Origin: an uncultured Clostridia bacterium | Lineage (GTDB): Bacteria; Bacillota; Clostridia; Christensenellales; Borkfalkiaceae | Reading direction: 5' to 3' | NCBI GenBank assembly: GCA_947629875.1 | Contig: CANRFK010000001.1 | Span: 1 to 40,242, forward strand | DNA: 40,242 nucleotides | In this document: positions 5,428 to 21,500 of the stretch, in pieces | Layout of the letters: each line of letters opens with the position of its first letter | How positions within the stretch are numbered: position 1 is the first letter of the stretch | The notes under the pieces: generated by a model | What the model was told of the DNA's origin: nothing | What the model saw: only the letters and a program-made list of their open reading frames with translations | Database searches by the model: none | Program-made: the position numbers and the translations under genes

Positions 5428-6753
5428 ATGTGGTTCGACGAGGCGGTATTTTATCAAATCTATCCCTTGGGTTTTTGCGGGGCGGAAAAAGCGAACGACT
5501 TCGGCGAAATTCGCCACCGCTTTCATAAAATCGAGGCGGAAATTCCGCGGCTGCAAGCGCTCGGCGTGACGGCGGTGCTCTTCAACCCGCTCTTCGAGAG
5601 CGAGCGGCACGGCTACGACACGGTGGATTTTTTCACCGTCGACCGGCGGCTTGGCACAAACGGGGAGTTCAAAGCCCTCGTGCAAAAGTTCCACGCGGCG
5701 GGCATCCGCGTCGTTTTGGACGGCGTCTTCAACCACGTCGGCCGCGCCTTTCCGCCCTTCAAAAAGGTGCAGACGTATCGGGAAAATGCGCCCGAACGGT
5801 TCTTCTTCCACATAAATTTTCAGGGAAATTCACGCTACGGTGACGGGTTTTTCTACGCCGACTGGGAGGGGCACTCCGAGCTCGTGAAGCTCAACCTCGA
5901 GAACGCCGAACTTCAAGGGTATCTCATGGATGCCGTGCGGTTTTGGATCAAGGAGTTCGACATCGACGGGCTGCGGCTGGACGTGAGCTATCTCCTGCCG
6001 CCGTGGTTTTTGGAACTTTTGCGCCGCACGGTGAATGCGCAAAAGCCCGAGTTTTTCCTCGTGGGCGAGGTCATCCACCTCAACAATTTCGAGAAGAATG
6101 TGACGCCAGCGCGGCTCGACTCCGCCACCAACTACGAGGGGTTCCGCAGTATGCTCTCGGCGTTCAACAGCCGCAATCTCTTTGAGATCGAGTACTCCAT
6201 GACACGCCTCTTCGGCGATTTTCCGTGGTGCCTCTTCCGCGGAAAACACCTGCTGAATTTCGTGGATAACCACGATGTGGAGCGCGCCGCCACTGCCTTA
6301 AAGGAGCCGAGAAACCTCAAAAACCTCTATACATTGCTGTTTACGATGCCCGGCATCCCCTGCGTTTACTACGGTTCGGAGTTCGGCGTAAAGGGCAAAA
6401 AGGGAAATTTGGACTACGACCTGCGCCCGTGCATCGACGACATTGACAAGGGCGCAAACGCCGAACTTTCCGCGCATATTGCGAGGCTTTCGGGGATCAG
6501 AAGGGGGAGCCGCGCGCTCGCCTACGGGAGCTATCGGAAGGCCGCCGTGCAAAACGGGTGGCTCGCCTTTGTGCGGGAGTTCGAGGGGGAGGAGATCGTT
6601 GTTGCCATCAACATTACGGAGGATGACCCCACCGTTCGCGTGGAGGAGGCAGAGGGCGTCGACCTTCTGACGGGCGAGGTGCGGAGTTTGAAAGATATCC
6701 ACCTGCGGCCGTTCTCTGCGTGCATTTACAGGAAGAATGCGGCGGGGAAATAG
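5428..6753 (+). CDS. GH13 alpha-amylase-family enzyme (catalytic-domain-only type), cytoplasmic
   Basis: All four GH13 conserved regions are present: VLDGVFNHV, DGLRLDVSY, FFLVGEVIH and NFVDNHDVER. It lies 17 nt after the GH3 stop. Confidence 0.85.
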   Translation: MWFDEAVFYQIYPLGFCGAEKANDFGEIRHRFHKIEAEIPRLQALGVTAVLFNPLFESERHGYDTVDFFTVDRRLGTNGEFKALVQKFHAAGIRVVLDGVFNHVGRAFPPFKKVQTYRENAPERFFFHINFQGNSRYGDGFFYADWEGHSELVKLNLENAELQGYLMDAVRFWIKEFDIDGLRLDVSYLLPPWFLELLRRTVNAQKPEFFLVGEVIHLNNFEKNVTPARLDSATNYEGFRSMLSAFNSRNLFEIEYSMTRLFGDFPWCLFRGKHLLNFVDNHDVERAATALKEPRNLKNLYTLLFTMPGIPCVYYGSEFGVKGKKGNLDYDLRPCIDDIDKGANAELSAHIARLSGIRRGSRALAYGSYRKAAVQNGWLAFVREFEGEEIVVAINITEDDPTVRVEEAEGVDLLTGEVRSLKDIHLRPFSACIYRKNAAGK

Positions 6754-6793
6754 GTTTTTTTCGGAGCTTTTTGGAATAAAAGATGCACTCGTT

Positions 6794-6824
6794 TGCGCCC
6801 CCGCGGCAGAGCCGCGGGGGCGCA
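6794..6824. other. perfect 14-bp GC hairpin downstream of the GH13 gene (possible terminator without a U-tract)
   Basis: tgcgcccccgcggc-aga-gccgcgggggcgca. No T-run follows it on the + strand. Confidence 0.35.
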
Positions 6825-6920
6825 TATAAGGCAAAGTCCCCCTCGACTGCGCTACTTTGTACGCCGCAATGCGTCGGGCGGGATGACATTATTATAGCGC
6901 GGGGCGGAGGCCTCGGCATG

Positions 6921-7101
6921 AGGACACCCCCTCACCCGCTACGCGGGAGCTCCCCCTCGAGGGGGAGCCAAGCCCCACCCCCCTACCCCCCCTCCCGGGA
7001 GGGGGAGAGTAACGGAGGCTCTCGAAGAGGGCAATATGGTGGGCGATTATGCACACCTCATCCGTCCGCCTGTGGCGGACACCTTCCCCTCGAGGGGAAG
7101 G
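6921..7101. repeat. cluster of REP-like GC-rich palindromic units
   Basis: Three consecutive units each end in a (c/t)cccctc..gagggg(a/g) palindrome: ctccccctcgagggggag, ccccctcccgggaggggg and ccttcccctcgaggggaagg. The last unit (7048-7101) shares the 17-mer tatgcacRcctcatccg and the cttcccct/aggggaag hairpin with 37743-37804. Confidence 0.55.
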
Positions 7102-7117
7102 GTGGGGGAAGCGTGCG

Positions 7118-7285
7118 GGTGGGTGGGTTTTGCACGGGTTTGGGACGGGTTTTGGGGTGGGTTTTGCACGGGTTTGGGACGGGTTTTGGATGGCTTTGGG
7201 ACGTCGTTTTGCACGGCTTTGGGGCGGGTTTTGGACGTCCTTGGGGACGTCGTTTTGCACGGCTTTGGGGCGGTTTTTGCGCGTT
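7118..7285 (+). repeat. degenerate GT-rich tandem repeat (two units of about 34 bp, then two of about 45 bp)
   Basis: The anchor ttttgcacgg recurs at 7128, 7162, 7207 and 7253, giving spacings of 34, 45 and 46. Many GGG runs are separated by 1-4 nt, for example gggtttgggacgggttttgggg, which occurs twice. Confidence 0.75.
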
Positions 7286-7401
7286 GCATCGAAAAAATAC
7301 GTATATATTTGGAAAAATGAATAAACCACAAAGAATTTTCATTTATTTTGGAATTTCTTTGAAATTTCACAGTATAAATTTATAAAATAACGTGAATTTG
7401 C

Positions 7402-7431
7402 TTGACATTTTCACGGGGGGGGGTGTATTAT
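7402..7431 (+). promoter_or_regulatory. candidate promoter of the 1003-aa/1714-aa lipoprotein genes, with a G9 tract in its spacer
   Basis: TTGACA 7402-7407, 18-nt spacer containing G9 (7415-7423), TATTAT 7426-7431. AT-rich upstream region. The ATG is at 7465. Confidence 0.45.
7415..7423 (+). repeat. poly-G (G9) homopolymer
   Basis: Counted directly: tcac-ggggggggg-tgtattat. Confidence 0.95.
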
Positions 7432-7464
7432 GCGGGATAGATAAGAAACAGTGAGGTATTATCT

Positions 7465-10400
7465 ATGAAATTACGCAAAATTTTCATGCTATTTGCGGTA
7501 CTCGCTCTCACGCTCGGCATCTGCGCCGCCTGCCGCGACACGCAGGATCCCGTTTATTACACGGTGGAAACGCAGTACGACGAGACGCTGGGCAGCGTTA
7601 CCGTGAGCGATCCTGCTTCGGCAAACGGCTATGAGGCCGGGGAGCGGGTCACGGTGACCGTTACCCCCAACAGCGGCGTGGAAGTGAAAAAGGTCACTTT
7701 GAACGGCGCAGAGAAGGAACTCGCCGAGAACAAACTTGTCTTTGAAGTGAGCCAAAACACGACGGTCGCGGTGACGTTTGAGGAAACCGCCGCACAGCCC
7801 CAAGTGGTGACGCTTACGCTGCCGACGGATGGGACGGTTGCCGCGGCGCCCGCGGGCCCCTACCACGCGGGGGATAAAGTCACGCTGACGATCACGGCGC
7901 CGAGCGGACAGAAGTTGAAGTCCATTAAGGTGAATGGCACGGAGAAGTTCTCGGAAGTGACGGAGAACACGTTGCAGATCGAACTCACCACGGATACCAC
8001 CGTTGCGGTGGAGTATGAAGCCGACACGCCGACGCCGCAGGTGGTGACGCTCACGCTGCCGACGGATGGGACGGTTGCCGCGGCGCCCGCGGGCCCCTAC
8101 CACGCGGGGGATACCGTCACGCTTACGATCACGGCGCCGAGCGGACAGAAGTTGAAGTCCATCAAAGTGAACAACGTGGAAAAGGTCACGGAAGTGACGG
8201 AGAACGCGTTGCAGATCGAACTCACCACGGATACCACCGTTACGGTGGAGTATGAAGCCGACACGCCTTCGCCGCAAGTGGTGACGCTCACGCTGCCGAC
8301 GGATGGGACGGTTGCCGCGGCGCCCGCGGGGCCCTACCATGCGGGGGACACCGTCACGCTTACAATCACCGCACCGAGCGGACAGAAGTTGAAGTCCATC
8401 AAAGTGAACAACGTGGAAAAGGTCACGGAAGTGTCGGAGAACACGTTGGAGATTGAGCTCACCACGGATACCACCGTGACGGTGGAGTATGAAACTGATA
8501 CGCCGGAGGTCATCGAAATCGGCGAAGAGTGGTGGGGATACTACGAGGGGTCGAGGAGCAGTGTTAAATATGCTCTGCGCATCGGCGCAACGAAGGTGGA
8601 ACTCAAGATCGGCGACGAAATATTTGCCGCGGGCACGTTGACGGAATACAAGGCGGACTATCACATCAAATTTACACTCTCGGGCGGCACGTGGACGATT
8701 GAAGCGCCGCTTTCCGGTAACCCGTATCAGTCGGTCATGCTCAGCGGCGGTCCCAATAACCTTGGAAATATCAATTGCTTGCGCGCAGAGGACCCGGGGC
8801 TTGGCGTGGACGATGAACTTGTGGGCGTATGGACTGCCACGGGTCACACGTTGACGATTACCAAACAAACCATCGATTTGGACGGCAAGCAGGCGACTAC
8901 GTATAATAAGCAAACTATGTTGATCTTTACCACCTATTCGTTTACGGTGGAAGGCGTGGCGTACTCCGGTGAGTTGGAAGGCGACACCTTTACTCTTTCG
9001 GGAGGCACGCTGGATAAAGTTGCATTCACGCGCCAAGGCGGGCAAACGGAGATCCCCGAACTCTCCATCCCCGACAACCTTGTGGGCGTGTGGACGACGG
9101 CAGCCGGCGATCACACGATGACTATCACGAAAACGGCGCTCACCCTCGACGGCGAGTCCGCAACGGAGTTTGAAACGCTACAAGAGGCAAACAAAGTGTA
9201 CTACAACTTTACGGCGGGCGGCAAGGACTACACCATGCTGTTCGGCGCTGACAATACGCTCAGCGTTTCGGAGAAGGAGAACACGGGCGCGAGCATTCAA
9301 TTTACGGTGAAGGACGGCAAGCCCATCGCGCCGCCGGAAGTGGAAATTTTAGAGGAATATAAGGGCGAATTCGAGGGCGAAAAGAGCGGCACCAAGTACC
9401 ATGTATCGGTGAAAGACGAGGGCATCTTCGTGACGATCGGCGAGACCGAGCCCGTAAAAGCGACGCTTATAGGGTACAACCTTTCGAAGCTTGGATACAC
9501 CTTTACGCTTGGAGACGACGAGACAGAATACCGTTTGGTAAATAAGGGTACCGGTTACGATCAAATGGATTTCTATTACGGTACTTGGATCACGGATTAT
9601 GTCACTTTGGATCGCGTAACGGAGACGGAGCCGAGCACGGATTTGAACGTGGACGATGAACTCATCGGCGAATGGGTCGCAGATGGGCATACGTTGACGA
9701 TCACCAAGACGTCCATTGTATTGGACGGCAAATATGCAACCGAATACAAAAAGGTTGCCTACGTTTTTGCCACCACATATACGTTTAAAATTGAAGGCGT
9801 CGAGTACACCGGTACGTTGGAAGATGACGGGTCTATTCATCTTACAGGGGGAGATATTGTCACATATATTGCGTTTACCCTTAAAAGCGAGCCCGAAATT
9901 CCCGAACTCACTGTCGATTCCGAAATCATCGGCGAATGGATCGCCGACGGGCACACCTTGACGATCACCGCAACCTCTATCGAATTGGACGGCAAATATG
10001 CGACCGAGTACAGCAAAGAGCCGGACGGGGTGTTTACCACATACTCGTTTACGGTGGAAAGTGTTTCGTACTCCGGTGTGTTGAAATCCAGCAACACGGT
10101 TTTTACGCTTACGGGGTTTGACGGTGGTCCGATCGACTTCACCCGCAAGAGCGAGTCGGGCGAACCCGATGTCGGCGGCGATGTTACTATTTCCGATAGG
10201 TATTGCGGTGTGTTTAGCGGTACAAACGGAGATGATACTTATGTGATCACGGTGGAGGCTCACAAGGTTTCCATTACGATCAATGGCGCGGAACAGACAG
10301 TCGTGCTTGAGGGCGAGGACGGTGGTGAACCTGTCACAGTTTCCATTACTATGAACGGAAAAAAGTATGTGTTGGCGTGGGCAACGACCGGAGCTAAAAA

Positions 10401-10476
10401 TGTTCGGTTGAAGGACGTTGATGAAAACGGCGATACCGGCAATGAGCTCAATGTAAAAGCCGAAAGGCAATCATAA
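7465..10476 (+). CDS. large repeat-built cell-surface lipoprotein, function unknown
   Basis: Signal peptide MKLRKIFMLFAVLALTLGICAAC with a probable lipobox. GAGG lies 8 nt upstream. One divergent unit plus three near-identical 79-aa beta-rich units follow, of the Ig-like / InlB-B-repeat type (xVTLTITAPSGQKLKSIKVNG...). After them, two further module types alternate. Confidence 0.8.
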   Translation: MKLRKIFMLFAVLALTLGICAACRDTQDPVYYTVETQYDETLGSVTVSDPASANGYEAGERVTVTVTPNSGVEVKKVTLNGAEKELAENKLVFEVSQNTTVAVTFEETAAQPQVVTLTLPTDGTVAAAPAGPYHAGDKVTLTITAPSGQKLKSIKVNGTEKFSEVTENTLQIELTTDTTVAVEYEADTPTPQVVTLTLPTDGTVAAAPAGPYHAGDTVTLTITAPSGQKLKSIKVNNVEKVTEVTENALQIELTTDTTVTVEYEADTPSPQVVTLTLPTDGTVAAAPAGPYHAGDTVTLTITAPSGQKLKSIKVNNVEKVTEVSENTLEIELTTDTTVTVEYETDTPEVIEIGEEWWGYYEGSRSSVKYALRIGATKVELKIGDEIFAAGTLTEYKADYHIKFTLSGGTWTIEAPLSGNPYQSVMLSGGPNNLGNINCLRAEDPGLGVDDELVGVWTATGHTLTITKQTIDLDGKQATTYNKQTMLIFTTYSFTVEGVAYSGELEGDTFTLSGGTLDKVAFTRQGGQTEIPELSIPDNLVGVWTTAAGDHTMTITKTALTLDGESATEFETLQEANKVYYNFTAGGKDYTMLFGADNTLSVSEKENTGASIQFTVKDGKPIAPPEVEILEEYKGEFEGEKSGTKYHVSVKDEGIFVTIGETEPVKATLIGYNLSKLGYTFTLGDDETEYRLVNKGTGYDQMDFYYGTWITDYVTLDRVTETEPSTDLNVDDELIGEWVADGHTLTITKTSIVLDGKYATEYKKVAYVFATTYTFKIEGVEYTGTLEDDGSIHLTGGDIVTYIAFTLKSEPEIPELTVDSEIIGEWIADGHTLTITATSIELDGKYATEYSKEPDGVFTTYSFTVESVSYSGVLKSSNTVFTLTGFDGGPIDFTRKSESGEPDVGGDVTISDRYCGVFSGTNGDDTYVITVEAHKVSITINGAEQTVVLEGEDGGEPVTVSITMNGKKYVLAWATTGAKNVRLKDVDENGDTGNELNVKAERQS
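7798..8508 (+). repeat. three intragenic tandem copies of a 237-bp (79-codon) unit
   Basis: gtggtgacgc recurs at 7804, 8041 and 8278, an exact 237-nt period. By eye the copies differ at only scattered positions. Confidence 0.9.
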
Positions 10477-10497
10477 GTTCAACAGTAATAACACCCG

Positions 10498-10537
10498 GCG
10501 CCCGACCGCTCACGCGGTTGGGCGCATCGGCATTTTT
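10498..10537 (+). terminator. weak or partial terminator-like hairpin between the two giant genes
   Basis: gcgcccgaccgc-tcac-gcggttgggcgc (one G-U pair). The T5 run begins only 7 nt after the stem. Confidence 0.3.
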
Positions 10538-10588
10538 GACCGCGGCGGGGCAGAGACCTTCCGAGGACGCTCCGCAGAGGAGGAAACC

Positions 10589-13500
10589 ATGAAAAGATCA
10601 TTCCCGATTTTGGCAAAGATTTTACTGCCCATATGTCTCTTGTGCGCGGGCATTGCGCTCGCGGCGTGCGGCGGTTCCAAGACGCCGGAGACGCCGCCGC
10701 CCACGCCTCCCACGACAACCACGGCGACGCTCACGCTGGACGCGGGCGAGGGCGGCACGCTCTCGCAGACGGAGTACAGCGTGGAAGTCGGGCAGAACGT
10801 TTCGCAATTCTTGCAGGACAAGACGCCGCAGACCAAGGACGGCTTCGAGTTTGCGGGGTGGTACAACGGCGGAAAGGCGCTCTCCCAAAGTTTTACCATG
10901 CCGGGCGAGGACTGTACGCTTGCGGCAAAATACCTCGTTTCCTACACGGCGCGGCTGTACTTCGAGGCATTGGACGGCAGTTACGGCGACTATGAGACGC
11001 GCACGGGCAAGGCGATGTACGGCGAGGCGTTCACCTATACCGTGCAGGAGCCGCACTTCACCGTGGACGCGGCGAAGGAGAACAAATTGTCCGTTGCCAA
11101 ACTGGGCGCGGGCGAAGTGTTCGAGGCCTACCTTGCGCGCGGGCAGATCACGGTGACGCTGTGGAATAATCTGCCCGAGAGCGATGCGGAGACGGTATCC
11201 GTGCGCTACGGCGAGGGGTTCATGCTTCCCGCCGCCCCCGAAGGCGCGGGGGAGGACTTCCGCTTTGCGGGGTGGTCTTCCTCCGCCAACGGGGAAGTTA
11301 TGTATGCTGCGGGCGAAAACGTTACCCCTGACCCGGAAGGGGAGTTTTTGGAACTCTTTGCGCGCTGGGAGGTGGCCGTCCATGACTTTTTCGACGGCGA
11401 CGACCGCATCTTTGTCTCCGCGACGCAGCAGGGCGTCGTCTATTTGCAGCGGTACGGCCTCGGGGAGAAAGAGGGCAGTTACGACCCCGATACGGGCATA
11501 TTTGTATTCTCCGAAGGGGAGGAGGAGATCCTCACCGGCAAGCTCTTCGAGCAGGGATTTTACTACTTCAAGGACACCATGGAGCGGGAATACCTGCCCT
11601 ACGGCGGCGGCGTCGATCGTCTCTCCCTTATGAGCGGCGGCGAGGCGGAGTACCGCGACGCGGCGGGGAACCGCTTCAACGGAAGCTATGACGTGGAGCC
11701 CGAGACGGGTGATTTCTTCTTTGACGGGGGCACCTTGCGGTTTGCGTTCCGCATCGTGGAGGGCGCGGGCAGCGATCTTGTGTTCCGCATCCAAGGCGAG
11801 GAGGCGGGAAGCTATCGGGCAAAGAATTCCTCCGACCGTTTGACCCTTGACGGCTTCGGCGGCTTTGAGGGCCTGATGAACGGCGACAGGTGCTCCGGCC
11901 TGTACATGTATGACAATTCCGACCAAACTTTGCTGTATCTGATGGTGCGCGACAACTATAACATCGTGACGAGCGCCTTCTACATCCGCTACGGTGGGGA
12001 CGGCTACTTTGCGATGGACGACGGCCTCGGAGGCACTTATCCCACGGCGGACGGCGGCGAACTCATGCTGGACGGCTTCGGGCAGGGCACCTTCAACGGC
12101 GCGGAGATAGAGTACGAGACCTATTTTGAGATGTGGTACGCGGTCAGCGGCTTCGATATGTCGCTGTATTCGATCACCGAAGTTTCCTTCGGCGACACGC
12201 GCGGCGTTCTCAAGTCGGTGGACGGCGTTACCACCTTTGCGGAAGTCACCGAAAAGCTGTACGGCGTGTACGATATCGACAATGCGGTGGAGATCGACGG
12301 CATTCTGTACACGCAGGCGTTTGTATACTGCTACGGCGACGGCACTTGCGACGTGTGGGTGCCCTACGGCGCCACAACCGAGGGTTACGGGGTGTTCATC
12401 CTTCTGATCCCCAACGCAAACGTTGCCCTTGACGCGGCAGGGGAGAAGGTTTCCGTTACCGATGAGGACTACGACCTCACCTTCGACCTTTTGGGCAGAA
12501 GGCTGTACGCGCCCCAATCCGTTACGGTGGTGGATGAATTTTTGCACCTTACCATCGACTCCAACGGCGACGCGTACATAAACGGAACGACGCCCGTGGA
12601 CTACTATTCCGAACCCGGTTATTACTACGTCTATCACTTCCTCGTGAACGGCGCGTGGTGCCACTATATCTATGCCGGCGAGACGTTCGTTGCGGCAACG
12701 CTCTATACGGAGAGCCTCGCGCACCCCAACCGTCAGGGCGACTGGCTGTTGAGCGTGCTTCAATTCGATGACCGCTACGCCGTGGGCGTTTACACCAACT
12801 CGGAAGTGTTCGCATACGTGCTCGTGGGCGACTGCACCCCGTTGGGCGGCGGCGAATATCAATTTGAAATGACGCAGAACAACGCGACGCAGTCTGTTCT
12901 CGATCTGTTCGGGCGTCTGCGCTTCCGCATTACGGGAGATATGTTTGAACGCTACGACGGTGCCGTGCAGGCGGCGGGGCTCACGCTGGACGGCTACGGC
13001 CACGGCGAATATAACGGCGAGCGGGGCGTTTACTACCCGGAGCGGGATATCATTGTATTTTGCGGCGAGGACGCGGAGTATCGCCTGCGCGTGACGGAGG
13101 ACGGCGTTACACAGCTCGGCGGTGAGGCGGGCGTTTACAGCCTGTTTTTGGACGGTGAACTGTACCCCGACGAGGTGCTGTATCTCGACGGCGAGGGCAA
13201 CGCGACGCTCACGATGCTCGAATACTACGCGGCGGCGGGCGTCTACACCGACCAATATGTCACGGCGCAGGGAAGTTACACCGCGGTGACGGAGTATCCC
13301 ATCGAAAACTTTACAGAGTACTGTCTGGAATTCCCCGCCGATACCGCCTTCTACGGCATCGTGGGAGGGAAACTCTATGTCGCCGCCGAGCGCGTGGAAT
13401 TCACAGATGGTTACAGTTACGGCGGGTTTATCCTGCGAGAGCCGAGCGCGGCCTTCCACCATGCCGTTCAGGGCGGCGGAGAGCTGTACTCCGACGGTTG

Positions 13501-15733
13501 GGAGGAGCCCTACGGCACCGCCTACTACACCGATGCGGACGGCACACGGCACGACGGTGCGCTGGCGCTGTGCGACCTCAACGATAGGGTGTACGAGGAT
13601 CGGGGCTATACCCTCGACCCGCTCGGAAAGACGATCATCTTTACCGAGTACAGAGACGGAGAGGCGGTCAACGAATTTATCTTCGACATCAAGGATGACG
13701 GCTCGGTGACGCTCCGCAAAGAGTTGAGCGGCGCGTATGTGCGCGTTTCGGAAACCGAGCGCACGGGCGAAGTGATGTATTTGGACGGCTACGGCAACGC
13801 GACGCTGTACGACGCGCAGGGCGCTGAAACGGCGCGCGGCAGTGTGCAGAGCATCGACGGCGATACGTACGCCTTCTGGGGCGAACACACCGAGGACAAC
13901 TTTGTGTTCCGCCTCTACGCCGTTTTGCAGGTGGGCGGGCGGTATCTCTATGAATACCGCGAGCAACTTGCGGACGAGACGGTGTTTATCTCCCACAGCG
14001 ATTGGCGGGTGCTCGTGCTGGACGGCTACGGGCTGGCGCGCTACATCGATCGGTACGGCGTCAGTCTCGAAGGCGAGTACACGGTCGCGGACGATGTGCT
14101 TGCCGTGTTCTACCCCAATGAGATCGACGCGCAGCCCATTTACTTCAATCTGGAAGAGGACAGCTTCTCTGTAAACACCGATGAATTTGTGCGGGTGGAG
14201 GATGCCCTGTACGGTTATCAGGGCACGCGCACATCCGTGACCGTGCCGGGGGATATCTCCATTATCAAGAAGAGAGCCTTCTTCAAGAGCGACGTCACGG
14301 AGATAAACCTCGGCAGTGTTACCGCCGTGGAGGCGGAGGCCTTCTACCGCAGCGACTTGCAGAGCGTAACGGGGAACTTGCTGCAAACCGTCGGCGCGCG
14401 CGCATTTTACGATTGCGAATATCTCGTGCGGGCGGATATCCCCGTTGCGACTACGCTCGGCGACAGCGCCTTTTACGGCTGCCAACGCCTGCGCAGCATC
14501 ACGCTACGCGAGGTGGAGAGCATCGGCGCCTATTGCTTCACCCATGAGGAAATGACGAACGACACGTTGAGCATCGACCTTACGGCCTGCCCCGACCCCA
14601 ATGCGGTGCGGGTGGACGCCGATGCGTTCGTAGGCATGGCGGATGGCGTGCTCGGCGGCAGCATCCACGTGCGCCTGCTCCTCAAAGATATCGCAACGGT
14701 GAACGCCGTCTATAACGGCGAAGCGTGGGGCGCGGCAAGCAAGTACGCGCAGCTTTCCATCGCCGATCGGGCGTTCGTGCGCTATGTCGACCTCGCGGGC
14801 GGAAAAGTTTACGCCACGTTGGAGGGCAGGCTTGCCGTATCCGTGGCGACCAAGGCGGATTACGACGAGGTGTGGGGCGACGGCATTGCCATTTACGACG
14901 GCGAAAAACTGTACTTCTTGCAGGCAAGCGGTGGCTATAACGAGGCGGGCGTCGAATTTGCAGACGCATTGAGCGCGAACGGCTATCTGCTCTTTGCGGA
15001 GAACGTCTCCCACGCGCTGACGACAGAGGACGGCAAACAGTTTGTGTTTACGTTGCAACTTCAATACGGCATGAGCACGGGCAATCACCATTACGAATAC
15101 ACCGTTACCGATTGCTCGTTCGACGGCGCGGCGGCGCAATTCGTGTACATCGAGGCGGATACGCTCTTCTTCGGACAGGCGGGCGAGGACTATGTCTCTG
15201 TTTCCGCAACGTCGCTTACGGCGTGCACCGTGCGCAACGACGGCTGTGTGGTGCGCACCGCCGACGGGCTGACGGAACTCGCGGTGCGCTTTGACGAAGA
15301 GGGCAAATTATCCGCGGTGATCTCGTTCCGCTACAAGAAGAGCGCGACGGGCAACTGGCTTTCGCGCTTGTTGGTCGATTGGTACGAAGAGGACGGGCAG
15401 ACCTTTGTGCGCACGGGCAGCGCGGAAAGGCCGGAGTACTGGAAGGTCTCCTTCGACGAACAGCACACATCGGTGCAGGTGGAGCACTACGGCAAACAGG
15501 AGAAGTACAACCCGCGCGACGGCATGCAGACCGTGTACGAGACGGAAGCGGTCATCGTGGTGGAGGGCGGCAAGATTGTGAAACTTGTCAGCTTTGTGTA
15601 CAACGAGCAGGAAGTGGCGTTCACCCGCGTGAAATACGACGGCGCCACCGCGATGGTGTACGCGGAGGGCGCAACGTACCGCATTACGTACGTCGACGCG
15701 ATCAGCGATTACATCACGGTGGAGATCGTCTGA
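10589..15733 (+). CDS. giant (1714 aa) surface lipoprotein with Listeria-Bacteroides (InlB B-type) repeats and BspA-type leucine-rich repeats
   Basis: GGAGG SD. Signal peptide with lipobox IALAAC followed by a PT-rich linker. B-repeat hallmarks are present (TLTLDAGEGG...GFEFAGWY..., FRFAGW...). BspA-like LRRs lie around 14236-14560 (IKKRAFFKSDVTEINL, AEAFYRSDLQSV, GARAFYDCEYLVRADI, GDSAFYGCQRLRSITL). The remainder is an uncharacterised repeat region. Confidence 0.8.
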   Translation: MKRSFPILAKILLPICLLCAGIALAACGGSKTPETPPPTPPTTTTATLTLDAGEGGTLSQTEYSVEVGQNVSQFLQDKTPQTKDGFEFAGWYNGGKALSQSFTMPGEDCTLAAKYLVSYTARLYFEALDGSYGDYETRTGKAMYGEAFTYTVQEPHFTVDAAKENKLSVAKLGAGEVFEAYLARGQITVTLWNNLPESDAETVSVRYGEGFMLPAAPEGAGEDFRFAGWSSSANGEVMYAAGENVTPDPEGEFLELFARWEVAVHDFFDGDDRIFVSATQQGVVYLQRYGLGEKEGSYDPDTGIFVFSEGEEEILTGKLFEQGFYYFKDTMEREYLPYGGGVDRLSLMSGGEAEYRDAAGNRFNGSYDVEPETGDFFFDGGTLRFAFRIVEGAGSDLVFRIQGEEAGSYRAKNSSDRLTLDGFGGFEGLMNGDRCSGLYMYDNSDQTLLYLMVRDNYNIVTSAFYIRYGGDGYFAMDDGLGGTYPTADGGELMLDGFGQGTFNGAEIEYETYFEMWYAVSGFDMSLYSITEVSFGDTRGVLKSVDGVTTFAEVTEKLYGVYDIDNAVEIDGILYTQAFVYCYGDGTCDVWVPYGATTEGYGVFILLIPNANVALDAAGEKVSVTDEDYDLTFDLLGRRLYAPQSVTVVDEFLHLTIDSNGDAYINGTTPVDYYSEPGYYYVYHFLVNGAWCHYIYAGETFVAATLYTESLAHPNRQGDWLLSVLQFDDRYAVGVYTNSEVFAYVLVGDCTPLGGGEYQFEMTQNNATQSVLDLFGRLRFRITGDMFERYDGAVQAAGLTLDGYGHGEYNGERGVYYPERDIIVFCGEDAEYRLRVTEDGVTQLGGEAGVYSLFLDGELYPDEVLYLDGEGNATLTMLEYYAAAGVYTDQYVTAQGSYTAVTEYPIENFTEYCLEFPADTAFYGIVGGKLYVAAERVEFTDGYSYGGFILREPSAAFHHAVQGGGELYSDGWEEPYGTAYYTDADGTRHDGALALCDLNDRVYEDRGYTLDPLGKTIIFTEYRDGEAVNEFIFDIKDDGSVTLRKELSGAYVRVSETERTGEVMYLDGYGNATLYDAQGAETARGSVQSIDGDTYAFWGEHTEDNFVFRLYAVLQVGGRYLYEYREQLADETVFISHSDWRVLVLDGYGLARYIDRYGVSLEGEYTVADDVLAVFYPNEIDAQPIYFNLEEDSFSVNTDEFVRVEDALYGYQGTRTSVTVPGDISIIKKRAFFKSDVTEINLGSVTAVEAEAFYRSDLQSVTGNLLQTVGARAFYDCEYLVRADIPVATTLGDSAFYGCQRLRSITLREVESIGAYCFTHEEMTNDTLSIDLTACPDPNAVRVDADAFVGMADGVLGGSIHVRLLLKDIATVNAVYNGEAWGAASKYAQLSIADRAFVRYVDLAGGKVYATLEGRLAVSVATKADYDEVWGDGIAIYDGEKLYFLQASGGYNEAGVEFADALSANGYLLFAENVSHALTTEDGKQFVFTLQLQYGMSTGNHHYEYTVTDCSFDGAAAQFVYIEADTLFFGQAGEDYVSVSATSLTACTVRNDGCVVRTADGLTELAVRFDEEGKLSAVISFRYKKSATGNWLSRLLVDWYEEDGQTFVRTGSAERPEYWKVSFDEQHTSVQVEHYGKQEKYNPRDGMQTVYETEAVIVVEGGKIVKLVSFVYNEQEVAFTRVKYDGATAMVYAEGATYRITYVDAISDYITVEIV

Positions 15734-15770
15734 AAAAGTCATGTAACAACCGTGATCCCTGCGTAAACGA

Positions 15771-15813
15771 TATGCACCTCAAAAGTCGGACACTTTTGGA
15801 GGTGCATATTTTT
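15771..15813 (+). terminator. rho-independent terminator after the 1714-aa gene
   Basis: tatgcacctcaaaagt...acttttggaggtgcata stem (one bulge) followed by TTTTTAT. Confidence 0.6.
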
Positions 15814-16096
15814 ATGGAAAAGAGGGGAGCGGGCCGAGGGGGGAGCCACCCGAGAAAGAGGCGGAAGATGATCTATCGGCAAAAACCAAGGAATGAGCCC
15901 GACGAAATCCCGAGCTCATTCGCAATTCGGCCGACGGGATCTTTGTCCGATTTTGGGAGATCTGTTTCGTCTGTGCGAGGGGATGGGTATTTACAAAAAT
16001 TCGTGTTCGAGTTGTTAAAATATTGACAAAATTTACACATAAACTTCAAAAAATGAACCAATTAAAAAATTTTTTGAAAAAATTTATCAAAACCTA

Positions 16097-16124
16097 TTGA
16101 CACGGCAATTTTTTATGATATAAT
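16097..16124 (+). promoter_or_regulatory. sigma70 promoter of the GH27 gene
   Basis: TTGACA 16097-16102, 16-nt spacer, TATAAT 16119-16124, with TG at 16116-16117 (extended -10). Confidence 0.6.
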
Positions 16125-16128
16125 GAAG

Positions 16129-16158
16129 GCAGAATATATTAACGTTAACCTATTCTGC
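16129..16158. promoter_or_regulatory. LacI-family operator-like palindrome overlapping the transcription start region of the GH27 gene
   Basis: gcagaatatattaacgttaacctattctgc is a near-perfect 30-bp palindrome centred on CG at 16143-16144. The core atattaacgttaa matches the perfect palindrome at 17544-17563. Confidence 0.55.
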
Positions 16159-16189: not shown

Positions 16190-17320
16190 ATGGTCAAAAA
16201 TACGCCTCCGATGGGGTGGAATACCTGGAATACTTTTGCGAAAGATATCAATGAAGAATTGATTCTGCAATCTGCGGACGCGTTGATCGCCACCGGGTTG
16301 AAGGACGCGGGCTATCAATACGTCGTGATAGACGATTGCTGGGCGCTCCGTGAGCGCGGTAAGGACGGAAAGCTCGTTCCCGATCCCGAAAAGTTCCCGC
16401 ACGGCATGAAATATGTCGCGGACGAACTGCACCGCCGCGGGTTGAAGTTCGGCATGTATTCCTGCTGCGGCGCCATGACGTGCGCGGAGTATCCCGGGAG
16501 CCTCAACCGCGAGTATCAGGACGCCAAGACGTTTGCGCGGTGGGGCGTGGACTTTTTGAAATACGATTATTGTTTCAAACCCGCGGGGTTGGAGGGCAAG
16601 ACGCTCTACCGCCGCATGGGGCTTGCGCTCGCGAACTGCGGGCGCGATATCCTGTTCAGCGGATGCAGCTGGGGCGCGGACAACACGCACGAGTGGATCG
16701 GAACGACGGGCGCCAACGCATGGCGCTCCACGCCCGATATCTTCGATACCTTCGATTCCGTGAAGGATCTCATCAAGCGGCAATACAACATCCTGCCTTA
16801 CGGCGGCGTGGGCTGTTTCAACGATATGGATATGCTCATCGTCGGCATGCACGGCAGGGGGAATGTCGGGCTCAAAGGGTGTACGGACGATGAATACCGC
16901 CTGCATTTCGCCGCGTGGTGCCTGCTCGCTTCGCCGCTCATGATCGGCTGCGACATCCGCGATATGGACGAGACGACGAGATCTGTCCTCATGAACAGGG
17001 ATCTCATCGCCATTTCGCAGGACGCCCGCGGGAACAGGCCGTACATCACCCGCTTCTTCGACTGCGACGACCTGCCCATCGTGGTGCGCGCGCTCGGGAA
17101 CGGCGATATCGCGCTCGGGCTCTTCAACATGACGGACGGCGACGCCAATTTCTGGGTGCCCGTGGACGACCTTGGCGTGCCGGAATTCAGCGGAAAGCGA
17201 CTGCGGGGCAAGGAGCTGTACACGGGGCGGGAGATCGCCTCGCAGAACGCGCTCCTGCGCGATAAAGTACCGCCGCACGCCTGCGCCGTATACCGCCTGC
17301 ACCTCGTGGACGCAAAATGA
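16190..17320 (+). CDS. GH27 alpha-galactosidase (melibiase family), cytoplasmic
   Basis: PPMGWNTWNTF, YVVIDDCW, GLKFGMYSCCG..TC and WGVDFLKYDYC (nucleophile Asp) are canonical GH27 blocks. There is no signal peptide. Confidence 0.9.
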   Translation: MVKNTPPMGWNTWNTFAKDINEELILQSADALIATGLKDAGYQYVVIDDCWALRERGKDGKLVPDPEKFPHGMKYVADELHRRGLKFGMYSCCGAMTCAEYPGSLNREYQDAKTFARWGVDFLKYDYCFKPAGLEGKTLYRRMGLALANCGRDILFSGCSWGADNTHEWIGTTGANAWRSTPDIFDTFDSVKDLIKRQYNILPYGGVGCFNDMDMLIVGMHGRGNVGLKGCTDDEYRLHFAAWCLLASPLMIGCDIRDMDETTRSVLMNRDLIAISQDARGNRPYITRFFDCDDLPIVVRALGNGDIALGLFNMTDGDANFWVPVDDLGVPEFSGKRLRGKELYTGREIASQNALLRDKVPPHACAVYRLHLVDAK

Positions 17321-17579: not shown

Positions 17580-18557
17580 ATGGCAAGAGGAAGGGTCACG
17601 GTAAAGGATATCGCGCGGGAGGCGGGCGTCACGGCACAGACCGTATCGCGCGTGTTCCGCAATCAGGGATATCTTTCGGAGGACACCAAAAAGAAGGTGC
17701 TCGAAGCGGCGAAATTGCTCAACTACGTGCCCAACCAAACGGCGCGTTCGCTGCGCATCGGCAACGAGAAGAGCATCGCGGTGGTGTTCGACGGGCTCAG
17801 GAACGTCTATTTCTCGGTGATGATCGACTATCTCTACCGCGAGGCGAACCGCCTCGGGTACGCGCTCACCACGGTGTTCCGCGCCTATGAGCATGAGATC
17901 ACGGAAAAGGTGTATCTCGACGCACTTTCCCTGGGCGCGTCGGCGGTCGTCAGTTTCCTCGAGGCCTCGCCAGAACTCGGCGGGGCGGTGCGCAGGTACG
18001 GCGTGCCCGTGCTCGTTCTCGGGCGGCGCACGAACATCCCCGAGCTCGACTATGTGACGACGGACGATGAGAAGGGCGGCAGGCTCGCCGCGGAAAAACT
18101 CATCTCAAAGGGCTGCAAGAAATTCCTGTACGTTGCCGAAGGCATGGGCATGACGTGCGTGCAGGATCGCGGCAAGGGCTTTATCGACGCTCTCGCCGCG
18201 CACGGCCATTCGGCAAAGGTCATCGATATCAACGGCGGATTTGCAGAGCAGATCGCCGCTTTGGAGGCGGAGGGGTTCATCCCGGACGGCGTTTTCTGTT
18301 TTTCGGATATGATCGCCTTCTACGTGCTCACCAATCTGAAGGGCGAAAAGTACGCCTCCATGAAAGTCGTCGGCTACGATGATATCGGGGCGGAGGTACC
18401 GTTCCCGCTGCGGCTCACCTCCGTTGGCGTGGACAAGGCGGAATATACGCGCTATGCTCTGGGCAAGCTCGTGGCGAAGATCGAGAACGACGGGCACGAA
18501 GAACTGGCCATCCGCGAGCGGTACGATGTATTCCTTCATGAGGGAGAAACGGCGTAA
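17580..18557 (+). CDS. LacI/GalR-family transcriptional regulator
   Basis: N-terminal HTH VTVKDIAREAGVTAQTVSRVFRN...KVLEAAKLLNYVPNQTARSLR followed by a periplasmic-binding-protein-like sugar-sensor domain. AGGAG SD. Confidence 0.9.
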   Translation: MARGRVTVKDIAREAGVTAQTVSRVFRNQGYLSEDTKKKVLEAAKLLNYVPNQTARSLRIGNEKSIAVVFDGLRNVYFSVMIDYLYREANRLGYALTTVFRAYEHEITEKVYLDALSLGASAVVSFLEASPELGGAVRRYGVPVLVLGRRTNIPELDYVTTDDEKGGRLAAEKLISKGCKKFLYVAEGMGMTCVQDRGKGFIDALAAHGHSAKVIDINGGFAEQIAALEAEGFIPDGVFCFSDMIAFYVLTNLKGEKYASMKVVGYDDIGAEVPFPLRLTSVGVDKAEYTRYALGKLVAKIENDGHEELAIRERYDVFLHEGETA

Positions 18558-18595: not shown

Positions 18596-21500
18596 ATGAA
18601 AAAACGCAAGTTGTTGGTCGGGCTCTGTATGGCGGTAACGTTCATACTCTGCGGAGCATTTGTGGCGTGCGGCGGGAAAAAACCCGACACGGACGACGGG
18701 GGGGGGTCATCTTCAACAGCAGTTTGGGATCTCAAACTCGAAGGTGAAAAGACTCGCACGCTGGAGATCGACGAGGCGATCACCGACCCCGTTACCGACA
18801 CGCTCACGTGGACGGTGACGAAGGACGGCGAGACCGTTGCGACGGAGCCCGTTGCCGTGACGCTCTCGGGCACGTCGGTCACGTACGACGAGGCTTCCCA
18901 CACGGTGACCGCCGTCAAGGAAGGCAAGACGACGGTTACACTCACACTCACGGGACATACCGATGTGCTGCCCGTCAGCGTGACGTATGAAGTTGTAGAT
19001 TATTTCTTCTCCCGCGAAGTGCAGAGGGGCACGTTGAATTTCTCGGGAGAATCCACCGGGCAGGTTCGCATCATGGGCGGGCAGGCGACCCTCGTTGCCG
19101 AGCGCAAGGCGACGGCATGGGTCTTCCGCACGACGCTCTCTGCCGTCGATTACAACACGGGAGAGGCGTTCGGCGTCGGTTCTTTCCTCGATAACGGCGA
19201 CCACGCGCTGTGGTTCGGGATGCAGAACAAGGACAGCCAGCCCGACGGAAAGTTCAGCGTCTATTTGAGGGACTTCTATGCGGGCTGGGGCAGCGCCAAA
19301 TATGACGGCAATCCCGAAGGATACAGCAACCGCACATTCGATCTTACAAACGGCGTTGAATGCGAGATTATCCGCAACGGCGACAATTATTATTACACGA
19401 TCGGAACATATTACGGAACTTATACGGCGCAGGAGACTGCGGCGACTTACCCCGGCGTTTTTTCGCAGGAGAGAGTCGTCACGGTCTCCCATTTTTCCGT
19501 GTCTTACGATGAAAATGAGGTGAGCGAGGCGGCCGCAGCGTATGCGACAAAGGGCGTCGCTTCCGTCGTCATCAATGAGACGAGAGCGGTGCGCCTTCTC
19601 AAGGGTTCGACGCAGAAGTACACCGCGAACTGCTATCCCGCAGACAAGAGCGCGGGCGCGACGGTCGCTTGGTCGCTCGACAAGGAAGGCATGACCGCGG
19701 GACAGGAGGGCACCACCATCGATGCGGACGGCACGCTGCACCTTTCCGATGATGCGGCGGGGAAAGTGACCGTCGTATGCACGGCGGGCGACGCGAAGGA
19801 TACCCTCACCGTGACCATCATCGCAGCGTCCGAGGACAAGGAAAACAGTCAGCTCTCCGTGAAGGGCGGCGTCATTCTCGAGGACGACAGCGGCGACATC
19901 GTATTTCCCGACTACATGGCTTCGACGAACGGCGTCGGCAACGAACAGAGCTATGAGGATGCGGGCTACGGCGCCATTCTCAAACAAAAGGTGACGGGCA
20001 ACTTCTCCGTGGAGTTCACCGTCTCCGAATATGTCGCCTATGCGCAAAATCCCAAACTCATGATCTCGCTCGGCGCGGATCACAACCAGTTCTATGTCGT
20101 CTATACATCGGGCTACTGCCGCATCGAAACGTACACCCGTCATGTCTATGACAATGCGGTGCACGACAACGACTGGGTGAACAGCGGCAGTTTTGAAAAA
20201 TTCGATGCGAACGCTTCCCATACCTTCAAGATCGAAGTGCGCAACGGCATTTACAATGTGACGGTGGACGGAACCGCGCTCACCTTCACGCCGTTCAACG
20301 GCGGAAACGGCGGACCGGAATCCACCCTTGTGCGCAGTTACGAACACTGCGCTGCCGAACTTCCCATCCGCATTGCGACGAACGGCGTCTCGGCGCGCGT
20401 CAGCGACATCACCGTGACGCAGAATGAAAGGACGCTTCCCGAATACTTCCACTTCGGCAATGCGACGACGGTAGAAAACGGCATTGAGATGCAGTGCTAC
20501 GACGGCACTCCCGACAGCTTGGCTTGGGCGCAGGCGCGCACCCGCGTCATCCGCACGGCGGCAAACAGGACGGGCGATTGCAACCTCACGATGAACATCA
20601 CATTCAGCGCGGCGATGCACGACGGCAAGGCGATCGTCCTTCTCGGGAATACGCAGGAACTGCAATTCTGCAACAAGATCGCGGCAGGGCAGGGGATCGT
20701 CCTGCAACTCGTTGACGGACCCGCCTTCGGCAAAACGTACGCCGTGCCCTGCGAAGCGGGCGCGGGCGGCACCTACACCATTGCCCTCCGCATCGAGCGG
20801 AAGGGGAACGAAAACCGCATCATTGCGAACGGCGAGGAGATCTGCCGCACCGACTATGCGTTCGGCGAGCACCTGCAATTCTCCGTGTTCAATATGCGCA
20901 GCGACGAAAACTCCGTCACCGTGAAGTTCACCGATATTGTGTTCGGCGACTATGAGGAGACCAAGGTCTACACAGTTGAGGATCTCACCAAGGACGTCAC
21001 GCTCTCCGTCACAGGACAGCATGAAGTAACGTTCACGGTGCACTGCAACGGCACCCCCATACACGATGAGGACTACACCGTTGAAGTGACGACGGAGGAG
21101 AAGAACTTTATTTCCTACGACGAGGGCAGCAAGAAGGTCACGGCGCTTGCGGCGGGCGAGGAGACGCTTACGATCAACATCAAGGTGGACGATGAAGTCG
21201 TCTGTACGGCGACCGTCACGTTCCACATCACCGCACGCGAGACGGCGGACTCCAACGAGAATTGGCAGGTGAAGGGCGGCGTTGTGCTCTACACCGACGA
21301 TAATTCCATCGAATTCCCCGAAGCATACCAAAGCACGAACGGCGTCGGCGATGAATATAACTATGCGGACGCGGATTACTCCGCCAACTACAAGAAAACC
21401 GTCACGGGCGACTTCTCCATCGAGTTCACCGTGGAGAATTACAAATCGGTGGGCGACTATCCTAAACTCATGATCTCGCTCGGCGGTACGCACAACCAAT

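Follow-up and report, generated by a model that had tools for sequence, protein, structure and literature searches.

A nine-G tract in the promoter spacer of a giant-lipoprotein operon: a probable porA-type switch in an uncultured Gallimonas-like bacterium of the gut Clostridia

Why would a promoter that precedes genes for giant surface lipoproteins carry an uninterrupted run of nine G between its -35 and -10 boxes? The question is raised by positions 7402-7431 of a 40,242-nt stretch of DNA from an uncultured Clostridia bacterium (the window, meaning the whole stretch that was analysed, which makes up one complete NCBI contig), where a preliminary description made from the letters alone had proposed a transcriptional switch. 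On re-reading, the -35 hexamer, the G run, the -10 hexamer and the 18-nt spacer were found exactly at the coordinates given there. The elements follow each other in the order TTGACA, TTTTCAC, G9, TG, TATTAT, and the ATG of a gene for a 1003-aa lipoprotein lies 33 nt downstream. TTGACA ends at 7407 and TATTAT starts at 7426, thus the spacer is 18 nt long. The features of the promoter, of the genes behind it and of a second G9 tract are the following:

7290-7401, + strand: A/T-rich, UP-element-like DNA 5' of the -35 box (sequence read)
7359-7388, + strand: weaker promoter-like site, TTGAAA-18-TAAAAT, in the upstream A/T-rich DNA (promoter scan)
7402-7407, + strand: -35 hexamer TTGACA, 6/6 matches (sequence read and consensus scan)
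7408-7425, + strand: spacer of 18 nt, 1 above the clade optimum of 17 (sequence read and clade spacer distribution)
7415-7423, + strand: G9 homopolymer, the proposed slippage-prone element (sequence read and run-length statistics)
7426-7431, + strand: -10 hexamer TATTAT, 5/6 matches (sequence read and consensus scan)
7453-7456, + strand: ribosome-binding site GAGG, 8 nt 5' of the ATG at 7465 (sequence read)
7465-10476, + strand: gene for the 1003-aa lipoprotein, the first behind the promoter (ORF translation, Pfam)
about 10497-10538, + strand: GC-rich hairpin followed by a T-run, between both lipoprotein genes (sequence and terminator scan)
10589-15733, + strand: lipoprotein gene whose 1714-aa product has a Flg_new (Listeria-Bacteroides) repeat and an LRR_5 region of the BspA type (Pfam)
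15770-15814, + strand: hairpin and T-run, likely the operon terminator (sequence)
18698-18706, + strand: second G9, in frame as GGG GGG GGG, codons 35-37 of a 1727-aa lipoprotein gene at 18596-23779 (ORF reading)

We first consider whether the 30-bp element is a promoter at all. It matches the consensus at 11 of 12 positions and was the best promoter-like site of the interval 6700-7700, in which our consensus scan found three such sites when 0.6 were expected from shuffles. The G+C content drops to 0.44 in 7201-7600, the whole window having 57% G+C. Moreover, the element is of the same type as the promoters of relatives, which combine a perfect TTGACA, mostly a 17-nt spacer, a TATAAT-like box and A/T-rich upstream DNA. 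The consensus matches, the same architecture in relatives and the ribosome-binding site and ATG that follow make the promoter call credible, and the identity first proposed for the element holds as far as sequence can tell. An extended -10 element formed by the TG at 7424-7425 was considered and rejected: this TG directly abuts the hexamer, so that the TGn register is off by one.

The DNA further upstream has peculiarities of its own. A G/T-rich tandem repeat (7121-7280), whose periods are 11, 22 and 45 nt and whose units resemble GGGTTTTGGAC, is found 130-290 nt 5' of the promoter. Its T-tracts are phased by about one helical turn and it contains many GGG/GGGG runs on the + strand; it could thereby be curved or form a G-quadruplex. 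The repeat is absent from every other locus that we fetched. To the 710-nt gap 3' of the amylase gene the annotation assigns an ORF of 200 aa (6783-7385), a singleton with no Pfam match. Since it runs through the tandem repeat and through the perfect GC-rich palindromes GCTCCCCCTCGAGGGGGAGC and CCTTCCCCTCGAGGGGAAGG (6949-6968 and 7082-7101), this ORF is probably no gene. Similar GC-rich palindromic sequence, for example CCCTCCCTGTGTAAGGGAGGG, fills an intergenic region of a related locus (L008), and a CCCTCGAGGG-type pattern has three occurrences in another one (L014). An Rfam search of the window gave no matches.

What would this promoter control? The 1003-aa protein has a signal peptide with a ...GICAAC motif and four divergent InlB B-repeat (Flg_new_2) domains according to Pfam. 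Our promoter scan found no separate promoter for the 1714-aa gene between both lipoprotein genes, and a clean hairpin with a T-run, the likely terminator, stands 3' of the second gene, thus a two-gene operon (7465-15733) and co-transcription of the 1003-aa and 1714-aa genes are plausible, yet the hairpin at 10497-10538 may act as a partial terminator or attenuator. The two genes are likewise adjacent in a 93%-identical strain (L086). Both operon proteins are of a surface type, with lipoprotein signal peptides and Flg_new_2 domains or Flg_new and LRR_5 domains. The neighbourhood includes genes for GH3, GH13, an alpha-galactosidase, LacI, GH43, a solute-binding protein and GH2.

The alpha-galactosidase gene has a promoter with the same upstream A/T-rich layout and no tract, a perfect TTGACA-16-TGaTATAAT at 16097-16124. 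The palindrome TTAACGTTAA (16139-16148), located 3' of it within a larger inverted repeat (region 16097-16157), is a candidate operator for the LacI-family regulator encoded at 17580-18557. As for the organism, the closest relatives of the amylase come from gut MAGs of rabbit, chicken and mouse, one of them at 87% identity, and relatives at 64-74% identity include Candidatus Gallimonas and an 'uncultured Christensenella sp.'. NCBI places Gallimonas in Clostridia incertae sedis; its GTDB placement we take to be Christensenellales.

Among the readings that we weighed, a slippage-driven promoter-spacer switch best explains the G9 at 7415-7423, and we favour it at somewhat better than even confidence; a switch of the porA type at 7402-7431 is probable. 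The locus combines a homopolymer of at least about 8 nt within the spacer, an excess of such runs over composition and a surface-protein target, the features by which such a switch would be recognized. According to this model, the 30-bp element would serve the operon 7465-15733, with its two genes for giant surface lipoproteins, as a sigma-70-type promoter, and the G9 tract would be a hypermutable simple-sequence repeat, in which replication slippage gains or loses a G and so shifts the distance between the -35 and -10 boxes. G8 would give the 17-nt clade optimum and high expression; G9, as assembled, would give 18 nt and reduced expression; and with G10 the distance would be 19 nt and expression very low. 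Cells of one clonal population would thus come to differ in the amount of adhesin-like proteins they make. The in-frame G9 at 18698 would act on the other giant lipoprotein as a second switch, of the on/off kind and at the level of translation. We infer that the promoter fires, that slippage occurs at a useful rate and that spacing affects expression. Spacers of 18 nt still work in many promoters, so the effect of the tract on expression may be modest.

The model depends on what spacing is optimal in this lineage. We took a census of 50 promoters of the clade in which TTGACA is perfect and the -10 box has at least 5/6 matches: the spacer was 17 nt in 35 of the 50, 18 nt in five, 16 nt in three and 15 nt in two. 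The statement that 17 nt is the optimum is thus borne out by a clear clade mode, and because this peak is sharp, the prediction that loss of one G leads to optimal spacing holds for the lineage. The tract promoters of the clade have spacers of 18, 18, 15 and 17 nt, so that two of the five promoters with 18 nt and one of the two with 15 nt carry a tract. As evidence that tract promoters lie off the optimum, this excess is no more than suggestive (p = 0.075).

Are such tracts rare enough to require an explanation? The window contains exactly two G runs of at least 7 nt, 7415-7423 and 18698-18706, followed by three G6, and its longest C run is C7. This count agrees with the earlier observation that only two G runs of this length exist in the 40 kb, the next being G6. 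Each G9 is found at the 5' end of a giant lipoprotein gene. When the G-run length distribution of the window is extrapolated log-linearly, 0.09 G runs of at least 9 nt are predicted, and two were observed (P of at least 2 = 0.004); an order-1 Markov estimate is looser, at 0.43.

The same excess is apparent in the clade. We compared 13 Gallimonas-like loci (221 kb, or 261 kb together with the window) with 67 loci of other Clostridia (1.03 Mb). Six G runs of at least 8 nt and no C run of that length were present in the 13 Gallimonas-like loci, whereas the other Clostridia had 0 G runs and 2 C runs; with the window included, the clade total is 8 G runs of at least 8 nt. When both strands of clade and window were counted, run lengths were bimodal (77 G6, 5 G7, 2 G8, 5 G9 and 1 G10), the G9-10 class being about 100-fold over-represented in the clade. 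Position separates the two modes as well: a -10-like hexamer begins 0-4 nt 3' of five of the six G9-10 runs, versus one of the 84 G6-8 runs (Fisher p = 8e-7). The sixth G9-10 run, away from any -10 box, is the coding tract at 18698.

Equivalent G9-10 promoter tracts were identified in the relatives' loci L007, L014, L005, L008, L176 and L212. The promoter of the window and four of these are laid out as follows:

Window: TTGACA-ttttcac-G9-tg-TATTAT, spacer 18, before the giant lipoprotein operon
L007: TTGACA-ggaca-G10-tgt-TATACT, spacer 18, before a SipW/TasA-like operon
L014: TTGACA-aac-G9-tga-TATAAT, spacer 15, before a 548-aa Flg_new lipoprotein
L005: G9-TACAAT, -35 box not clear, before a secreted protein
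L008: G9-tcgt-TATAAT, -35 box not clear, no obvious gene downstream

None of the genes 3' of the tract promoters has an orthologue in the remaining clade loci, as would be expected of accessory surface genes, and a homologue search with the ORF 3' of the L005 tract returned nothing. L005 has, in addition, a TTGACA-18-TATAAT site with a T8 run in its spacer (15177-15206), a possible homopolymer-spacer promoter with a base other than G.

A comparison of the tract in related genomes and MAGs had been proposed at the outset, and it could be carried through in part: relatives do have equivalent G9-10 promoter tracts, with a number of G that differs at one orthologous promoter, but the locus itself has no second copy. 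Variable-gap DNA patterns gave 0 matches to another copy of the promoter in genome and metagenome contig collections, and no record matched the 1003-aa protein, the amylase or the alpha-galactosidase in exact-protein look-ups. In a cluster look-up among 15 billion proteins, the 1003-aa protein, the amylase and the 200-aa intergenic ORF were singletons. Homologue searches with the 1003-aa protein returned only itself and matches at 35% identity or less, whose contigs (L001-L003) belong to unrelated low-GC organisms and are without tracts. The same species is present in two ENA samples at a coverage of 2-2.6x, and the 93%-identical strain in one Logan run; none of these contigs extends to 7415, and L086 begins within the 1003-aa gene and so is without the promoter. 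Synteny 3' of the amylase is not conserved, thus relatives offer no orthologous promoter for the window operon. In the sample ERZ27249343, where coverage is only 2.4-2.6x, the same species has two frameshifting indels that may be real or errors: an apparent 8-nt insertion at window position 16450 splits the alpha-galactosidase gene (L084) and an apparent 25-nt deletion at 21167-21191 splits the 1727-aa lipoprotein gene (L087).

The second tract of the window lies in a coding sequence. The preliminary description had placed a G9 at 18698, at the 5' end of the other giant-lipoprotein gene, and we confirmed it there, in codons 35-37 of the 1727-aa ORF. It encodes Gly35-37, in the linker right after the lipobox cysteine. 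With G8 the frame meets a stop after 73 aa, and with G10 after 50 aa. Of the Gly codons, 19% are GGG, hence a probability of 0.007 for three in a row, and none of the six other Gly-Gly-Gly sites in genes of the window is spelled GGG three times. The tract is also G9 in a 99.7%-identical contig of a second sample (L085), the sole cross-sample datum for the tracts of the window; another contig (L084, coverage 2.6x) stops 13 nt short of it. The companion tract has the layout typical of a translational on/off tract and is a candidate switch of this kind; the two assemblies in which it is included both have the ON frame.

At other promoters, the number of G could be compared between assemblies. One orthologous promoter, available in three assemblies, has G10 in L007, G9 in L176 and G9 in L212. 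In the metagenome contig L176, which aligns with L007 at about 92% identity for more than 7 kb, the tract is G9 instead of G10 and the spacer is 17; L212 was reached via homologues of the TasA-like protein, a route without selection on the tract. The orthologous operon of L211 is preceded by TTGACA-c-G7-agtgtcata-TATAAT, with a spacer of 17, and tract-free TTGACA-17-TATAAT promoters are found in L208, L209 and L210. Two of these loci carry a G10 about 130 nt 5' of the tract-free promoter of the SipW/TasA-like operon (L209, 1357-1366; L210, 1382-1391), outside recognisable hexamers and of equal length in the two samples.

Near-identical strains differ exactly at the tract. L127 and L164 are 99.6% identical over 2,065 nt, L154 and L183 are 99.3% identical over 8,954 nt, and either alignment contains just one indel, which falls in the promoter G tract (G9 vs G10). 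Flank clustering of the matches of a metagenome scan (described below) gave about ten same-locus groups, of which six vary in G number among the matches listed. One of the groups reads G10, G9 and G10 (L089, L131 and L205, respectively), and a group before a prepilin gene has G9 twice and G10 three times, with G11 in a related copy. Three groups, L106/L172/L203, L097/L120 and L138/L170, are constant in length among the matches listed. Some of the differences between assemblies could reflect homopolymer consensus errors.

These data bear on the alternative that the G9 is a fixed and stable spacer sequence in a real promoter, whose expression would be constitutive or set by a regulator, with no meaningful stochastic switching. 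Constancy is indeed what the three groups just named display among the matches listed, as do the G10 shared by L209 and L210 and the coding G9 that is identical in two samples. A stable spacer, however, leaves unexplained why G9-10 runs are in roughly 100-fold excess in the clade with five of six abutting a -10 box, why tract promoters tend to depart from the 17-nt optimum (suggestive only, p = 0.075), and why orthologous promoters and near-identical strains differ precisely at the tract. We consider this alternative unlikely, though it deserves to be kept in mind.

To see the promoter type beyond the clade, metagenomes were scanned with the pattern TTGACA-N2-8-G9-TG-N0-1-TAT (G at least 9), in which tracts shorter than G9 are undetectable. 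At least 120 matches were obtained. The sixth -10 position, left unspecified by the pattern, is T in 107 of 121 among the matches listed, which indicates that the matches are real promoters. Among the matches listed, the tract is followed by a TGn in the extended -10 register in 97 of 121, and the spacers of matches outside a large family (see below) are broadly distributed over 14-20 nt with no peak at 17. Outside that family, 45 of 71 callable first ORFs (about 63%) among the matches listed start with a signal peptide, a lipobox or a prepilin motif. Giant lipoproteins are among the targets, on contigs of 52-57% G+C (L110, L131, L140 and L205).

Other targets were seen on gut contigs of 26-32% GC, where L135, L142, L149, L150, L194 and L201 have TTGACA-AGT-G9/10/11-TG-TATGCT promoters. 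Several of these, together with L094, L104, L143 and L198, precede prepilin-like genes (MKKKGFTLIE...), with a number of G that varies by sample, which suggests that poly-G tracts control type IV pilins or pseudopilins in low-GC gut contigs. In L105, L121 and L141, lipoproteins encoded behind poly-G promoters have Gly runs right after the lipobox cysteine (CGGGGG...), and these loci may contain coding G tracts like the second one of the window.

The large family comprises 37 mostly environmental promoters among the matches listed, on contigs of 30-50% G+C (L096, L102, L108, L109, L133, L137, L144, L151, L163, L179, L185, L200, L206 and about 24 others). Its layout is a conserved A-rich stretch, TTGACAG(C/T)T(T)-G9-TGATATACT and a conserved leader, AAGATTTTGGAAAAACTAAACTATTAC. 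The downstream genes are unrelated and encode binding proteins, dehydrogenases and CoA ligases. With the flanks diverged, the tract is G9 in 32 of 37 and the spacer 16 nt in 26 of 37 among the matches listed, in a scan that is blind below G9. The tract of this family therefore looks conserved rather than variable. No extra unbiased copies of the module were present inside the fetched loci, Rfam had no match in nine loci of the family, and our literature searches found no publication on it.

The 37-member module hints that G9-TGn-TATAAT may be a conserved promoter element with a function of its own. Applied to the window, this would mean that the G tract is functional per se and conserved in length, being contacted by a regulator or RNA polymerase 5' of the -10 box, or forming part of a G-quadruplex with the repeats at 7094-7280. 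A near-fixed G9 beside TGn-TATAAT keeps this reading alive, and the 16-nt spacer peak, the conserved leader and the unrelated genes of the family (all among the matches listed) speak for it, as do the TGn in extended -10 register 3' of most tracts (97/121 among the matches listed) and the G-rich, 11-bp-period repeat on the same strand 130-290 nt upstream of the window promoter. We nevertheless find it doubtful as an account of the window tract: across the clade, the distance from tract to -10 box ranges over 0-4 nt and the position within the spacer is variable, tract length differs between orthologues, and the upstream repeat is absent at the other clade tract promoters. Moreover, the spacers outside the family spread over 14-20 nt among the matches listed, and this reading lacks a known regulator or motif.

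It appears very improbable that the G run arose in sequencing or assembly, be it as the poly-G of two-colour chemistry or through a homopolymer of incorrect length. Homopolymer lengths are error-prone, and the related contigs L084, L085 and L087 come from 2-2.6x assemblies. The G9, however, lies mid-contig in a functionally sensible place with unique sequence on both sides, and this arrangement is also present in assemblies made independently from rabbit, chicken, mouse and many other metagenomes. Likewise, the coding G9 keeps the 1727-aa frame and is identical in an independent assembly, and the L154/L183 pair shows no other indel in 9 kb. Finally, switching by DNA inversion (an inverton) rather than slippage was rejected and is hardly conceivable here: arms do occur on either side of the promoter (7349-7372 and 7463-7486), but they are only 71% complementary over 24 nt of A/T-rich DNA, one overlaps the start codon, and a scan of the 19 larger ORFs yielded no recombinase domain.

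A slippage-driven spacer switch would be no new invention: the mechanism itself is classical, and what would be new is its occurrence in this lineage. The poly-C promoter of opc is of the same type as that of porA. In Neisseria meningitidis, the number of G's in the -35/-10 spacer of porA sets the transcript level in graded steps (PMC3899988). The window promoter resembles that of porA in having a G homopolymer in the -35/-10 spacer of a surface-protein gene, with a similar tract length of 9-11. Unlike porA, which belongs to a proteobacterial pathogen, it comes from uncultured, Gram-positive-type, Gallimonas-like gut Clostridia, and its target would be a two-gene giant-lipoprotein operon with InlB B-repeats and LRRs in a glycoside-hydrolase neighbourhood.

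Spacers with other repeats work in a comparable manner. In the vlp promoters of Mycoplasma hyorhinis, a poly-A tract in the spacer controls variable surface lipoproteins through the distance between the -35 and -10 boxes. The TA-repeat spacer of Haemophilus influenzae hifA/hifB controls fimbriae through the same distance (PMC3899988). Both are experimentally proven on/off systems, and their repeat is A or TA, whereas it is G here. Helicobacter pylori sabA has a T-tract 'rheostat', a homopolymer beside core promoter elements that tunes the adhesin stepwise and not on/off. In contrast to the window promoter, where the tract is in the spacer, that of sabA stands beside the -35 box, and it is thought to act via DNA geometry and UP-like contacts. 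Intragenic poly-G contingency loci are documented in Campylobacter jejuni and in the lgt genes of Neisseria (PMC2192423, PMC3025981). The companion tract at 18698-18706 is like these in its position early in a surface-protein frame, which a one-G change truncates; it is in frame in both assemblies covering it. Our literature searches found nothing relevant on poly-G promoter switches in Clostridia or Christensenellales, in agreement with the initial remark that no description was known for glycan-utilisation loci of gut Clostridia.

Of greater interest than the single locus is the wider pattern, in which poly-G promoters stand before accessory surface genes of uncultured gut Clostridia. For gut commensals, what is known of phase variation comes mostly from the invertible promoters of Bacteroides, and repeat tracts are known mostly from pathogens. 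We propose tentatively, giving it a little less than an even chance, that a poly-G tract 5' of the -10 box is a lineage-wide device for the stochastic control of species-specific surface proteins in Gallimonas-like Clostridia and in many other uncultured bacteria. The proteins under such a device might, with the same reserve, include giant lipoproteins, TasA-like fibres and type IV pilins. If so, commensals would possess a large and unrecognised layer of repeat-based phase variation, distinct from Bacteroides invertons, and, provided that the poly-G promoters switch, uncultured Clostridia of animal guts would diversify their adhesin-like surface proteins through replication slippage. This would change how strain-level variation, escape from phage and immunity, and glycan foraging are read in metagenomes, where single consensus assemblies would hide the expression state. 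The lengths of promoter homopolymers in MAGs would then be information and not noise, and the scan pattern used here is a cheap means of listing candidate loci.
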